A DNA stretch of 14,562 nt from UHGV virus genome UHGV-0177146. One strand, given 5' to 3'. A model generated the notes under the pieces. It was not told the DNA's origin and ran no database searches. It was given only the letters and a program-made list of their open reading frames with translations. Both the position numbers and the translations under genes were made by a program. Positions 9,291-12,873 of the stretch are shown here, piece by piece; the first letter of the stretch is position 1; each line of letters starts with the position of its first letter. The DNA comes from a virus.

Positions 9291-9319
9291 TTGACAAAGG
9301 ACTTGACAAGGTGTAGGCT
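9291..9319 (+). promoter_or_regulatory. candidate early promoter (TTGACA family)
   Basis: AAAAAAGTTGTTGACA with the upstream context shared by the other family members; a second TTGACA lies at 9303-9308; the -10 is poor (TAGGCT at 17-nt spacing). Confidence 0.4.
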
Positions 9320-9440
9320 TATAAATACTTAGAAGATAACTTAAAAGGTTCCTCTAAAAAGGCTATTTAAACAGATATCTTTCTGGATATCTATCTTTTA
9401 TCTTAAAAGCCTTTTAAGAGGTCTTATAAGAGGCATACCA

Positions 9441-9812
9441 ATGAAAAACAGAACAAACAAAGGCCAGTTTAAAAAAGGCCAGTCTGGAAACCCATCTGGA
9501 AGACCAAAAGGCTCTCGTAACAAAAGCTCACTCGTAAAAGCTCAACTGACCATTGACAATTCTGCTGAGTTTGCTGCAAAGTTATTTGAAGCGATTGTTA
9601 CAAGGGATGCTGCAAAGCTTGCAGAGTTTGGGTTAAACACAGATGACGTAACCATCAAGAGCATGATTGAGGTCGGTAAAACCATCTTTACTCACTCAGC
9701 AGGTGAGATGAAAGCACTTGCAGCAGACACTAAGAAGACTCCTGATAACGGTGGTCAACCTCAGACAGATAACAAACCAACGTTCTCTGCTGTAGCGACT
9801 CTTAAAAAATAA
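9441..9812 (+). CDS. hypothetical protein (123 aa) with Gly/Lys-rich N-terminus (GQSGNPSGRPKGSRNK)
   Basis: ATG at 9441 with AGAGG RBS about 9 nt upstream. I recall the GNPxGRPKG N-terminal motif from a family of small phage/bacterial proteins of unknown function. Confidence 0.65.
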   Translation: MKNRTNKGQFKKGQSGNPSGRPKGSRNKSSLVKAQLTIDNSAEFAAKLFEAIVTRDAAKLAEFGLNTDDVTIKSMIEVGKTIFTHSAGEMKALAADTKKTPDNGGQPQTDNKPTFSAVATLKK

Positions 9813-9824
9813 TTTTAAAAGGTG

Positions 9825-9854
9825 TTGACAGGCTCTACAAAGTTGCTCTAAAGT
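9825..9854 (+). promoter_or_regulatory. sigma70-like promoter (TTGACA, 18 nt, TAAAGT)
   Basis: AAAGGTGTTGACA -35 with A-rich upstream; -10 TAAAGT at 9849-9854; the -35 lies in an imperfect inverted repeat TTGACAG...CTGTCAC. Confidence 0.5.
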
Positions 9855-9893
9855 CTGTCACATCAAACAACAAATGAGAGAAGAGAGTAAAAT

Positions 9894-11309
9894 ATGAGCG
9901 AATTATTTAAACATGCGCACCTTCATGCAGGTCGAACTGAAAATGGTGCTGTAAACCATACTTCATCAATGTCTGCTCTTGTAGACTTTTACAAAGCTGC
10001 TGGTTCTAGCCGTAGCAATGTAGAAATCTTACCAGACTTGTTCTACAAAGCTTTGCATGATGATGTTGATGTTGCAGTTCGTATTTTACTGCATATGCGA
10101 GATGTACGAGAAGGTATGGGTGAGCGTAAAGCTTTCCGAACTGTTTTACTTCAAGCGATTGAAGATAAAGTTTTAGAGCCTACACAGGTTCTTCGCATTA
10201 TGGATAAGATTGCAGAGCTTGGTCGCTTTGATGACTTCAAAATCTTTGTAGGTACTCGTTTCGAGACAGATGCCTTCAAACATTTAGAAGCAGCACTACT
10301 AGACCCTGCAACAGCAGGTTTAGCAGCTAAGTGGTTACCACGAGTAAAACCACGTCACAAACAGTTTGTAAAACGTTTCTGTAAGTTTGCAAACTTGAGC
10401 GAGAAAGAGTATCGCACACTGTTATCTGCACTATCTGATACAGTTGAACAAAAAATCTCGGCTAATGAGTTTGGTAAGATTGACTACAGTAAGATTCCTT
10501 CACTTGCTGCTGCACGTTATCAAAAACTCTTTAACCGTAAAGATGGAGAACGCTACAAAGCTTACGTTGAGTCATTATCAAAGGGTGAGACTAAGATTAA
10601 TGCTGGTGCTGTTTATCCATACGATGTGATTAAATCTATCAAGTATGGTAATGCAGATGTTGCTAATGAGCAGTGGAAAGCACTACCAAACTGGATGGCA
10701 GAAGGTGAAAACATCTTGTGTATGACTGATGTTTCAAGCTCAATGTCTTGGGTGAATCTCGGCTCAATTACTGCCCTTGATATTGGTGTATCACTTGCCT
10801 TGTATGTAGCAGAACGCAATACAGGTTGCTTTAAGAACGAGTTAATGGTTTATTCAACAAACCCTCATTTCATCGAACTGAGTGGCGATTTAAAGAACCG
10901 TCACCGTCAGGTAATGCGTCATGTTGAATATGGTTCAACCAACTTACAAGCAGCTTTTGACCGCATTCTTGAGACAGGCAAGAGAAACAACTTAACTCAG
11001 AAAGATATGCCAAGTAAGCTTATCATCTTCTCTGATATGGAGTTCAATCAGGTTGATGGTGCAAATGGTCGTACAAACTTTGAAGCAATTCGTAGTAAGT
11101 ACAAAAAAGCTGGATACGAAATGCCACAACTGGTATTCTGGTACTTAGCAAACCGTAGTGGTACTTGCGAAGTATCTGTTAAGGATAACGGTGTAGCAAT
11201 GGTATCAGGGTTCTCTCCAGCCACTTTAAAAGCCCTGCTTGGTGGTGAGAAGTTTGACCCAATCAGCGTAATGCTCAAAGCAGTAATGATTGACCGTTAC
11301 ATCTGGTAA
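9894..11309 (+). CDS. von Willebrand factor A (vWA) domain protein with helical N-terminal domain; candidate Ro60/Rsr (TROVE-like) homologue
   Basis: C-terminal half carries a MIDAS-type DxSxS motif (CMTDVSSSMS, nt 10728-10742), a GSTNL loop and an IIFSDMEF motif typical of vWA folds. The N-terminal ~270 aa are helical and contain GRTENGAV, reminiscent of the GxEGGT motif I recall near the N-terminus of Ro60/Rsr. TROVE assignment is inference. Confidence 0.85.
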   Translation: MSELFKHAHLHAGRTENGAVNHTSSMSALVDFYKAAGSSRSNVEILPDLFYKALHDDVDVAVRILLHMRDVREGMGERKAFRTVLLQAIEDKVLEPTQVLRIMDKIAELGRFDDFKIFVGTRFETDAFKHLEAALLDPATAGLAAKWLPRVKPRHKQFVKRFCKFANLSEKEYRTLLSALSDTVEQKISANEFGKIDYSKIPSLAAARYQKLFNRKDGERYKAYVESLSKGETKINAGAVYPYDVIKSIKYGNADVANEQWKALPNWMAEGENILCMTDVSSSMSWVNLGSITALDIGVSLALYVAERNTGCFKNELMVYSTNPHFIELSGDLKNRHRQVMRHVEYGSTNLQAAFDRILETGKRNNLTQKDMPSKLIIFSDMEFNQVDGANGRTNFEAIRSKYKKAGYEMPQLVFWYLANRSGTCEVSVKDNGVAMVSGFSPATLKALLGGEKFDPISVMLKAVMIDRYIW

Positions 11310-11327
11310 AAAGTTTTAAAAAGGGTA

Positions 11328-11356
11328 TTGACAATGTGTTTGATACCCTTTAATAT
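11328..11356 (+). promoter_or_regulatory. sigma70-like promoter (TTGACA, 17 nt, TAATAT) upstream of the tRNA island
   Basis: Near-consensus -35 and -10 at correct spacing; the -35 is embedded in the inverted repeat AAGGGTAT...ATACCCTT. Confidence 0.6.
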
Positions 11357-11418
11357 GTTCTACATAGAAACGAAATGAGAGCTTTTCTAAGATACTGAAA
11401 AATATTTTAAAAAAGTTC

Positions 11419-11448
11419 TTGACAATCACTAAAAAATAATGTTAAAGT
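11419..11448 (+). promoter_or_regulatory. sigma70-like promoter (TTGACA, 18 nt, TAAAGT)
   Basis: AAAAGTTCTTGACA with the same upstream context and the same TAAAGT -10 as the promoter at 9825; about 30 nt upstream of the first tRNA. Confidence 0.5.
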
Positions 11449-11474
11449 GGTTACATAGAGTTTGAAAAGTTTAT

Positions 11475-11551
11475 CTCTGTTTAGCTCAGCTTGGTAGAGC
11501 GTTCCGTTTGGGGCGGTAAGGCCGGAGGTTCAAGTCCTCCAACAGAGACCA
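11475..11551 (+). tRNA. tRNA-Pro (anticodon TGG), CCA encoded
   Basis: Hand-folded cloverleaf: acceptor CTCTGTT/AACAGAG with a C1:G72 pair (characteristic of E. coli tRNA-Pro), D-arm GCTC-AGCTTGGTA-GAGC, anticodon loop TTTGGGG, T-arm GGAGG-TTCAAGT-CCTCC, A73. Confidence 0.8.
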
Positions 11552-11558
11552 AATTAAT

Positions 11559-11636
11559 GTTCCAGTAGACAAAACGGTAAAGTCACCACTCTTTCAAAGT
11601 GGATATTTGAGGGTTCAAATCCCTTCTGGAACGCCA
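11559..11636 (+). tRNA. tRNA-Glu (anticodon TTC), CCA encoded
   Basis: Acceptor GTTCCAG/CTGGAAC, anticodon arm CCACT-CTTTCAA-AGTGG, T-arm GAGGG-TTCAAAT-CCCTT, G73. The D-stem is short and the variable loop slightly long, so identity is less certain. Confidence 0.65.
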
Positions 11637-12137: not shown

Positions 12138-12224
12138 AATTATAATAAGTATTTCAAAATGATGTTTTGAGAGGGCTATTTAGCCCCTCCCTTAAAGAGT
12201 TCTTACGAGTATTCTTTAAAGGAG

Positions 12225-12301
12225 CAGAAGACCAAATTCAGCAAGTACGTATGAAATTTTCAAGCCAATTTAATTTTGAAAAAATTTAAAACTTGGTCTG
12301 G
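12225..12301 (+). ncRNA. conserved structured intergenic element C (same family)
   Basis: CAGAAGACCAAATTCAGCAAG ... CTTGGTCTGG; closing helix AGACCAA/TTGGTCT around an AT-rich loop. Confidence 0.4.
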
Positions 12302-12314
12302 CTCAACAAATTTA

Positions 12315-12446
12315 CAGAAGACCGTTTACAGCAAAACTTAAACAATCTATTTCTCCGGTAAAGAAAAGGCGAAGGTTCGATTCCTTCACTCGGCAGATGT
12401 CGAGTTGGTGTAATGGTAGCACTCAAGATGATAAACAACGGTCTGG
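12315..12446 (+). ncRNA. structured RNA element D with internal circularly permuted tRNA-like module; candidate Y-RNA/YrlA-like RNA
   Basis: Closing helix AGACCGTT (12319-12326) / AACGGTCT (12437-12444). Inside, in this order: canonical T-arm GAAGG-TTCGATT-CCTTC (12371-12387), acceptor-like 7-bp hairpin ACTCGGC-agat-GTCGAGT (12388-12405), D-arm-like GTG-TAATGGTAG-CAC (12408-12422). Confidence 0.5.
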
Positions 12447-12447
12447 T

Positions 12448-12591
12448 AATTATCTTTGTAGATAAGTTATTAAGCTTACCTGTGAGTATGCGACCACAAA
12501 GGGTGAAAGGGTAAATTCTAGATTTAAACCCAACAAGGCACATCGCTACAGACCTTAAGCAAGTCTGGGTAGCTTATCTACAAAGATAATT
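12448..12591. repeat. 19-bp perfect inverted repeat (AATTATCTTTGTAGATAAG / CTTATCTACAAAGATAATT) flanking 106 nt
   Basis: Arms at 12448-12466 and 12573-12591 are exact reverse complements; the interior contains a mini-hairpin CAGACC-ttaagcaa-GTCTGG (12549-12568). Confidence 0.6.
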
Positions 12592-12595
12592 TAAT

Positions 12596-12671
12596 GGAAG
12601 TGTAGCAGAATGGTGATGCGGCAGACTTTTAATCTGACAGGCGATGGGTTCGAATCCCTCCACTTCTACCA
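12596..12671 (+). tRNA. tRNA-Lys (anticodon TTT), CCA encoded
   Basis: Acceptor GGAAGTG/CACTTCT, anticodon arm GCAGA-CTTTTAA-TCTGA, T-loop TTCGAAT, A73. Confidence 0.75.
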
Positions 12672-12675
12672 ATAT

Positions 12676-12752
12676 GGTTCAGTCGCAGATAAGGTAATGC
12701 AGGGGTTTCATAAGCCCTGTGAATGTGGGTTCGATTCCCATCTGAACCTCCA
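12676..12752 (+). tRNA. tRNA-Met or Ile2 (anticodon CAT), CCA encoded
   Basis: Perfect acceptor GGTTCAG/CTGAACC, anticodon arm GGGGT-TTCATAA-GCCCT, T-arm GTGGG-TTCGATT-CCCAT. Confidence 0.75.
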
Positions 12753-12753
12753 A

Positions 12754-12829
12754 GCTGGTATAGTTAAGAAGGTTATAACACTCCCCTGATAAGGGAACAT
12801 CGGTGGTTCGATTCCACCTACCAGTACCA
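12754..12829 (+). tRNA. tRNA-Ile (anticodon GAT), CCA encoded
   Basis: Acceptor GCTGGTA/TACCAGT, anticodon loop CTGATAA, T-arm GGTGG-TTCGATT-CCACC, A73. Confidence 0.8.
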
Positions 12830-12844
12830 ATTTCAATAAAGTTG

Positions 12845-12873
12845 TTGACATTGAGATGTGACCACTTTATAGT
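12845..12873 (+). promoter_or_regulatory. sigma70-like promoter (TTGACA, 17 nt, TATAGT) inside the tRNA island
   Basis: AAAGTTGTTGACA with the conserved upstream context and a good -10; followed by a ~200-nt leader before the next tRNA. Confidence 0.6.

Follow-up and report, generated by a model that had tools for sequence, protein, structure and literature searches.

Five copies of the hexamer TTGACA on the + strand of UHGV virus genome UHGV-0177146 raise the question of which polymerase, and which signals, would serve the genes and transfer RNA (tRNA) clusters that follow them. The whole stretch of 14,562 nucleotides is referred to here as the window. A preliminary description of this DNA had read the sites as a phage-specific early promoter class with a recurring noncanonical -10 box and possibly operator-like control. 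Our analysis makes it likely that the five sites, termed P1 to P5, are strong promoters for the unmodified sigma-70 polymerase of the host, of the type built from an upstream (UP) element, a -35 box, an optional TGn extension, and a -10 box. Region 9000 to 13200 of the window is 97.5% identical to Enterobacteria phage UAB_Phi87, and it matches 288 records of phages, almost all of which belong to the Felix O1-like group (Felixounavirus and allied Ounavirinae). On these matches, the source is classed as a Felix O1-like phage of the genus Felixounavirus, subfamily Ounavirinae.

The TTGACA sites form a family upstream of genes and tRNA clusters

The + strand hexamers begin at 9291, 9825, 11328, 11419, and 12845, exactly where they had been placed before, and an extra tandem copy begins at 9303. 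The extended pattern AAAGNTNTTGACA occurs in the window in four exact copies (9284, 9818, 11412, and 12838) and in three copies with one mismatch (9296, which is the tandem second TTGACA; 11321; and 585). These seven matches stand against 0.82 expected, an approximately 9-fold enrichment, and none of 200 shuffles reached seven, confirming the five TTGACA sites with a shared upstream context that were first described. Six of the matches are intergenic + strand sites located 5' of genes or tRNA clusters; no -10 was found at 16 to 18 nt from the seventh, at 585, which appears to be a chance match. A repeat finder independently recovered the promoter family (as D3, D5, and D7), and the upstream block common to the sites reaches further 5' than was first noted (TTTTAAAAAAG). 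P1 to P5 are all intergenic and lie 26 to 232 nt 5' of a + strand gene or tRNA with which they are co-oriented, which supports the earlier view of a real, conserved promoter family.

Each of the five sites has a -35 that matches TTGACA at 6/6 positions and a -10 with T1, A2, and T6 at 17 ± 1 bp. In P1, the -35 (9291 to 9296) is followed, after a 17-nt spacer, by the probable -10 TAGGCT (9314 to 9319), which is poor (3/6) and the weakest -10 assignment of the five. P2 combines its -35 (9825 to 9830) with TAAAGT (9849 to 9854) at 18 nt, and P3 (-35 at 11328 to 11333) has TAATAT (11351 to 11356) at 17 nt. The P4 -35 (11419 to 11424), with the TC of the extended -35 directly 5' of it, is followed at 18 nt by the extended -10 TGTTAAAGT (TGn plus TAAAGT; 11440 to 11448), 26 nt upstream of tRNA-Pro, and the P5 -35 (12845 to 12850) is followed at 17 nt by TATAGT (12868 to 12873). 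The combination of TAAAGT with an 18-nt spacing had thus been assigned correctly at 9825 and at 11419. P3 and P4 stand in tandem, at a distance of 91 bp from each other, 5' of the first tRNA cluster.

Two minus-strand TTGACA hexamers, at 6240 and 5914, were rejected as family members; they lie inside coding sequence without the upstream block, and one of them directly precedes a terminator. We also discarded a 14-nt stretch of the P4 -10 region that is complementary to the P5 spacer, since 3.9 kb should contain about one pair of this kind by chance. Scanning the whole window against Rfam at permissive E-values gave only tRNAs and sub-threshold noise, with nothing at the promoters.

The upstream block falls in the register of an UP element

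P1 to P5 were compared in an alignment anchored on the -35 (a MAFFT alignment among them misplaced P2), and the UP consensus, taken from papers quoting it, was scored in a fixed register with the same anchor. These papers give AAAAAARNR for the proximal subsite (PMC4132738) and a 17-nt UP core, AAAWWTWTTTTNNNAAA, together with an extended -35, tcTTGACAt (PMC2412878). The upstream block AAAAAAG-T-T coincides exactly with the proximal subsite (A-tract at -46 to -41 and purine at -40), and the T two bases 5' of the hexamer (-38) fits the extended -35. We take the first T of the hexamer to be -36, as in rrnB P1, and the register of the block rests on that numbering; for the full consensus, NNAAAWWTWTTTTNNNAAANNN, the flanking Ns and the placement at -59 to -38 are presumably those of Estrem 1998.

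From P1 to P5, the proximal subsite scores were 7, 5, 6, 7, and 6 of the 8 specified positions, with AAAAAAGTT at P1 (9281 to 9289; -46 to -38) and AATAAAGTT at P5 (12835 to 12843). Against the full consensus, P4 scored 14/14 (TGAAAAATATTTTAAAAAAGTT, 11396 to 11417), followed by P2 with 11 (9802 to 9823), P3 with 10 (11305 to 11326), and P1 and P5 with 8 each; the DUF5681 gene has its stop codon within the P2 element, and the DUF2828/DUF7788 gene has its own within the P3 element. Of 29,044 positions in the window, P4 alone reaches 14/14, and it is likewise the sole one of 175,126 in the whole 87.6-kb UAB_Phi87 genome; in both it stands in exact register with a TTGACA. The distal subsite, AAAWWTWTTTT (-57 to -47), had played no role in the original choice of sites. 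It is matched at 8/11 positions by P2 and by P3 and at 11/11 by P4, versus a background mean of 4.3, and the combined p for these three is about 3.5e-5, even conditioned on AAA at -43 to -41. P1 and P5, with 5/11 each, are at the background level and have only the proximal half element. We read the upstream block as the promoter-proximal half of an UP element rather than as a phage-specific signal.

A genome-wide search for the extended -35 block, proposed in the preliminary description, was run on the complete UAB_Phi87 genome and gave 24 matches to AAAGNTNTTGACA versus 5.4 expected. Candidates in this genome were also collected by a -35 with at least 5/6 matches plus a TAnnnT-type -10; the 29 intergenic co-oriented candidates had a higher mean UP score (8.0) than the remaining 168 (5.7; Mann-Whitney p = 1e-6). 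In a logo of 27 UAB_Phi87 candidate promoters, A occupies -43 to -41 in 20 to 22, G occupies -40 in 15, and T occupies -39 in 16, with a second A peak at -56 to -54 and T at -50 to -47, which is a two-subsite UP pattern. A perfect TATAAT -10 is found in none of the 27.

The -35 and the A-tract are conserved while the inner -10 bases change

Three intergenic regions were aligned with 11 relatives at 82 to 97% identity, taken from Felixounavirus, Mooglevirus, and Suspvirus plus pEC-M719, a record without a genus (12 genomes, including the window). The TTGACA -35 is invariant at all five sites. Upstream of it, the invariant part is the tract TTTTAAAAAA, as seen in the P4 element; the P3 UP element is invariant as well, and the A-tract of P1 is kept in the 12 genomes. 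The G of AAAG is replaced in other genera by C or T at P4 and by T at P1 (in Mooglevirus), and the A-tract stays. The AAA(A)G context of the preliminary description therefore holds as an enriched block with a conserved A-tract, but its G is not conserved in relatives at two sites.

In the -10, the relatives keep T1, A2, and T6 and change the inner bases. At P2, Mooglevirus and pEC-M719 have TAGAGT in place of TAAAGT, after a spacer that is 17 instead of 18 nt long and of unrelated sequence; at P4, the same genomes have TATAGT with TGn retained. TATAGT of P5 becomes TAAGAT in Mordin and Sf17, TAGGCT of P1 becomes TAGCCT or TAAGTT at a fixed 17 nt, and TAATAT of P3 is invariant. Spacer sequences vary among the relatives. 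Since the inner bases change, TAAAGT is an ordinary weak 4-of-6 -10, and its proposed role as a noncanonical signature of the family is not sustained by relatives that carry TATAGT or TAGAGT at the same sites. Taken together, the comparative footprint reads as the classic sigma-70 promoter pattern. The layout recurs in a more distant phage of Erwinia, Kolesnikvirus Hena2, whose tRNA cluster is preceded by gaaaatcttg-TTGACA-17-TAAGAT with an UP score of 10.

P1 to P5 as probable promoters for the host polymerase

In the proposed mechanism, each promoter would join a perfect -35 TTGACA to a deliberately imperfect TAnnnT -10 at 17 to 18 bp. The proximal UP half would act at all five and the distal half also at P2, P3, and P4, and P4 alone would carry all four elements, including the extended TGn; the predicted effect is a very efficient recruitment of the host polymerase. 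P1 would drive the DUF5681 gene and P2 the DUF2828/DUF7788 gene. P3 and P4, in tandem, would serve the first tRNA cluster, and P5 would restart transcription after tRNA-Ile and so serve the second. P3, and less clearly P2, would lie within the hairpin thought to terminate the gene 5' of it, forming compact terminator-plus-promoter cassettes. From the motifs, register, statistics, placement, and conservation pattern observed, we infer contact of the polymerase alpha subunit with the block, as well as promoter strength, timing, and start sites. No RNA polymerase or polymerase-modifying factor has been reported for Felix O1-type phages (PMC3185647, PMC4690856), and Felix O1 and VpaE1 genomes yield infectious phage in an all-E. 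coli cell-free extract (PMC13591810); both fit transcription by the host polymerase.

Several points weigh against this reading. No mapped start sites or RNA sequencing data for Felix O1-type phages were found in the literature searched, so that promoter activity is a prediction here. P1 joins a poor -10 to half an UP element, and P5 likewise has the proximal half only. G at -40 and T at -39/-38 are commoner than the UP consensus requires (15 to 16 of the 27 UAB_Phi87 candidates), and this excess could reflect a lineage-specific contribution or a common origin of the sites. A host-promoter model does not account for the second, invariant TTGACA at 9303, and the A+T content of the genome, 61%, raises background UP-like scores, although the tests used that same background. 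Finally, timing is mixed. In reverse transcription-PCR on Felix O1, open reading frames (ORFs) 45 and 46, 3' of the 12845 promoter, were seen at 5 min, whereas ORF41 and ORF42, 3' of the 9291 and 9825 promoters, peaked at 25 min (PMC3185647). The label "early," originally given to the whole class, fits P5 at best and does not fit the unit transcribed at 25 min.

Inverted repeats and the possibility of mobile cassettes

Two of the -35 boxes had been described as lying within inverted repeats. Both repeats exist, but the one at P2 is longer than stated, pairing 9821 to 9834 with 9852 to 9864 (13 pairs). The hairpin over the -35 and spacer of P3 (11320 to 11351) starts 11 nt past the stop codon of the upstream gene and has 12 pairs, counting G-T (-12.6 kcal/mol). 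Its stem has only 3 G-C pairs, and opening of the A-U pairs at the stem base would give it the tail TTTAATATGTT. The hairpin was found by a terminator scan and corresponds to the TransTerm terminators t42 and, on the other strand, t43 of Felix O1 (PMC3185647). Among relatives it is almost invariant, with a single one-sided change from U-G to U-A that is compatible with an RNA hairpin and no proof of one. The imperfect repeat around the P2 core promoter (9821 to 9864) has a 17-nt loop and no U-tract. Its RNA fold reaches -15.0 kcal/mol (z score of -3.1), and in the almost invariant alignment its pairing holds in 96.8% of cells, no better than in shuffles (168/500). For covariation, the P2 and P3 repeats are too invariant to tell an RNA hairpin from a DNA operator. 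A stem-loop was noted at P3 and, weakly, at P2, with no comparable repeat noted at P1, P4, or P5.

Terminator-like hairpins at promoters bring to mind the PeSLs of T4-type phages, composite cassettes in which a promoter is combined with a terminator (Arbiol 2010, PMC2839356; Comeau 2014, PMC4122927). P1 to P5 might be mobile or duplicated cassettes of this kind, whose conserved sequence would be a recombination substrate for gene shuffling; promoter function is compatible with this, and we consider it a possible, if doubtful, explanation. P3 and P4 share 28 nt at 82% identity, and P1, P4, and P5 share 16 nt at 94%. Nevertheless, the similarity among the five sites is limited to the functional -50 to -30 block and the spacers are unrelated, as expected from functional selection and unlike recent copying. 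A stop codon in the A/T-rich part, a promoter-overlapping stem-loop, and a downstream ribosome site fit the published description (PMC2839356), but the stem-loop is restricted to P3 and, weakly, P2. The flanks of P5 are exchanged among relatives exactly at the promoter edges, with the sequence directly 3' wholly replaced in Felix O1 and UAB_Phi87; an HNH endonuclease gene, inserted at this place in Felix O1, could explain the breakpoint equally well.

Further support for cassettes comes from the rest of the UAB_Phi87 genome. On its minus strand, in the early region, five near-identical units at 18668, 19468, 20542, 21146, and 21493 have the form ATAAAGTAC-TTTACA-GGGGCTTA...TAAGCCCCAGATAAAG, with the spacer and -10 of a TTTACA promoter inside a terminator-like GGGGCTTA...TAAGCCCC hairpin. 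These units appear to be the "57-bp direct repeats" of the Felix O1 paper. The rIIB promoter of UAB_Phi87 also has a hairpin, within its spacer.

Likeness to PeSLs extends to the sigma-70-like promoter and to an A/T-rich stretch with an upstream stop codon, present at P2 and P3 and not at P1, P4, or P5. In PeSLs, too, the stem-loop lies over the -35 or between the -35 and -10, G-T pairs included, and the units are repeated along the genome; the stem type A3-4 G3 ... C3 T3-4 resembles the AAAGGG...CCCTTT of the P3 hairpin. The differences are that a stem-loop is confined to the sites named above, that a recombination role is hinted at by P5 only, and that PeSLs have been described only in T4-like phages, whereas the window belongs with the Ounavirinae. 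Our claim is that these sites would work like PeSLs, without membership of that class; no paper linking PeSLs to Felix O1 was found in the literature searched.

As a separate observation at P5, about 200 nt of conserved noncoding sequence (12874 to 13076) extend from the promoter to tRNA-Arg. Against the Rfam transfer-messenger RNA models, this stretch gives weak sub-threshold scores of 29.6 and 14.3 bits (gathering score of 47). Felix O1 and UAB_Phi87 have other sequence in its place, which in Felix O1 includes the HNH endonuclease gene.

Tandem TTGACA copies and the question of a phage regulator

The second TTGACA of P1 (9303 to 9308) lies inside the P1 spacer and is invariant in the 12 genomes, while the 5 to 6 nt between the copies vary. 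A TTGACA-N6/7-TTGACA tandem occurs at three promoters heading major transcription units, one in the window (9291 to 9309) and two in UAB_Phi87 (17266 to 17279 and 52526 to 52538), with the TTGACAA direct repeats 12 to 13 bp apart. The copy at 9303 was rejected as an independent promoter, since neither it nor its counterparts in the two paralogous tandems have an acceptable -10 at 16 to 18 nt; reading it on the minus strand gives no -10 either.

A phage-specific class, as first proposed, would mean that a phage activator or repressor reads the AAAG-T block, the tandem TTGACAA, or the inverted repeats and so sets timing. We judge this unlikely. In its favor, the block has G at -40 and T at -39/-38 more often than a generic UP consensus would give, the second TTGACA at the heads of major units is invariant without a -10 partner, the P2 and P3 cores lie within conserved inverted repeats, and published statements call the transcription timing of Felix O1-type phages unknown. 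However, every shared element (UP, tcTTGACA, TGn, and TAnnnT) fits the consensus of the host polymerase, and all conserved elements have a host-polymerase explanation in the correct register. Moreover, the G of AAAG is the base that relatives replace (by C or T at P4 and by T at P1) while the A-tract stays, the P3 repeat is listed for Felix O1 as a terminator and shows a change from U-G to U-A that is typical of RNA pairing, and no candidate factor was identified. A narrower form of this idea, that the tandem TTGACAA repeats and the P2 and P3 palindromes are operators for a phage-encoded regulator switching host-type promoters off or on during infection, seems similarly improbable; if true, it would explain transcription timing in Felix O1-type phages without a known polymerase modifier.

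The statistics and the conservation pattern already refute a third reading, in which the sites are chance matches without function in A+T-rich intergenic DNA. A generic promoter scan did find 32 sigma-70-like sites in the window versus 35.7 in shuffles, and the match at 585 appears to be a stray copy of this kind, but the block is enriched about 9-fold, the sites stay unchanged in the sampled genera where adjoining bases vary, and the best UP match of the whole UAB_Phi87 genome lies in the exact TTGACA register.

Comparison with known promoters and earlier annotation

Read as host sigma-70 promoters, P1 to P5 resemble the UP promoters of E. coli (rrnB P1 type, consensus of Estrem and Gourse) in the A-tract at -46 to -41 and the purine at -40, and P2 to P4 also have the distal half in the same register. 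The two tandem promoters before a tRNA cluster (P3 and P4) recall the arrangement of rRNA operons. The combination of a perfect -35 with an imperfect -10 at the phage sites is the reverse of that at rrnB P1. Unlike the E. coli promoters, P1 to P5 are phage-borne and have spacers of 17 to 18 nt, and dependence on alpha is here predicted.

The early promoters of T4 have been described as "uber" UP/-35/TGn/-10 promoters (Hinton 2010, PMC2988021). They share with P1 to P5 excellent matches to host elements and extra conserved positions beyond the host consensus, and those of T4 out-compete host promoters. The TTTACW -35 variant of T4-type early promoters is paralleled in the early region of UAB_Phi87. 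In contrast to T4, the phage here falls in the Ounavirinae, TGn occurs only at P4, and not all of the genes served peak early; no homologue of Alt, ModA, AsiA, or MotA has been reported for Felix O1-type phages.

Some of these sites had been annotated before. P1 corresponds to P41 and P5 to P45 of the Felix O1 annotation (Whichard 2010, PMC3185647), and P2 is listed for UAB_Phi87 at position 5,726 as TTGACA / CTCTAAAGT in the BPROM table of PMC4837284. P3 and P4 are absent from the Felix O1 promoters of PMC3185647. In PMC3185647 and PMC4837284, we found neither the upstream block nor its UP register mentioned, nor a layout with the promoter inside a terminator, and promoters are not analyzed in the genome papers on wV8 and VpaE1. 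P1, P5, and the P3 hairpin are therefore already known from Felix O1 and P2 from UAB_Phi87, and the mechanism is not a new one.

Felix O1-type phages find wide use in cell-free phage synthesis, in biocontrol, and in the typing of Salmonella and E. coli, yet their genome papers call the control of transcription unknown. A promoter model that joins a consensus -35 to an UP element in register is concrete and testable; it could guide the annotation of about 290 related genomes, and it would explain why Felix O1-type genomes boot in plain E. coli extract. It may also provide compact and, as predicted, very strong natural promoters for engineering, particularly the tRNA promoter P4 with its perfect UP consensus.

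Genomic setting and other features of the region

The minus-strand genes extend as far as 9212, and a divergent intergenic region (9213 to 9440) separates them from the DUF5681 gene on the + strand (9441 to 9812; stop codon at 9810 to 9812). The DUF2828/DUF7788 gene, also on the + strand (9894 to 11309; stop codon at 11307 to 11309), is annotated in relatives as vWFA or "RNA-binding protein." From 11475 onward, where tRNA-Pro starts, there are 19 tRNA genes.

Two candidate divergent promoters for the minus-strand genes were seen at 9237 to 9297, TTGTCA-18-AATAAT with TGn and TTGACT-17-TACCAT, both within a largely invariant block. The -35 of the first is the reverse complement of the P1 TTGACAA, so that this candidate and P1 would compete for polymerase. 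The leader of the DUF5681 gene (9330 to 9440) is near-invariant among genomes that are about 82% identical overall and is conserved more than coding sequence; it folds at -28.4 kcal/mol (z score of -3.2) around a central palindrome, AGATATC-TTTCTG-GATATCT.

Between the tRNA genes, four copies of CAGAAGACC-NN-WT-N-CAGCAA were found at 11644 to 12450 (0.01 expected), each with GGTCTGG some 40 to 100 nt 3' of it. These elements and GGTCTGG look like the two stem halves of small structured RNAs; they had no Rfam match, and they adjoin the DUF2828 gene, the one annotated in relatives as an RNA-binding protein. A 22-nt inverted repeat (12448 to 12469 and 12570 to 12591), 95% complementary with 100 nt between its arms, lies directly 5' of tRNA-Lys. 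The sequence at 11728 to 11804 is called tRNA-Met by ARAGORN and was unreported by the Rfam tRNA model even at a permissive threshold.

Far from the promoters, an ORF-poor stretch (305 to 1985) contains a dense cluster of CTTAACA repeats at 785 to 1350. The window has 17 of these repeats versus 3.9 expected, and 12 of the 17 lie between 787 and 1877. The window probably spans a physical genome end.

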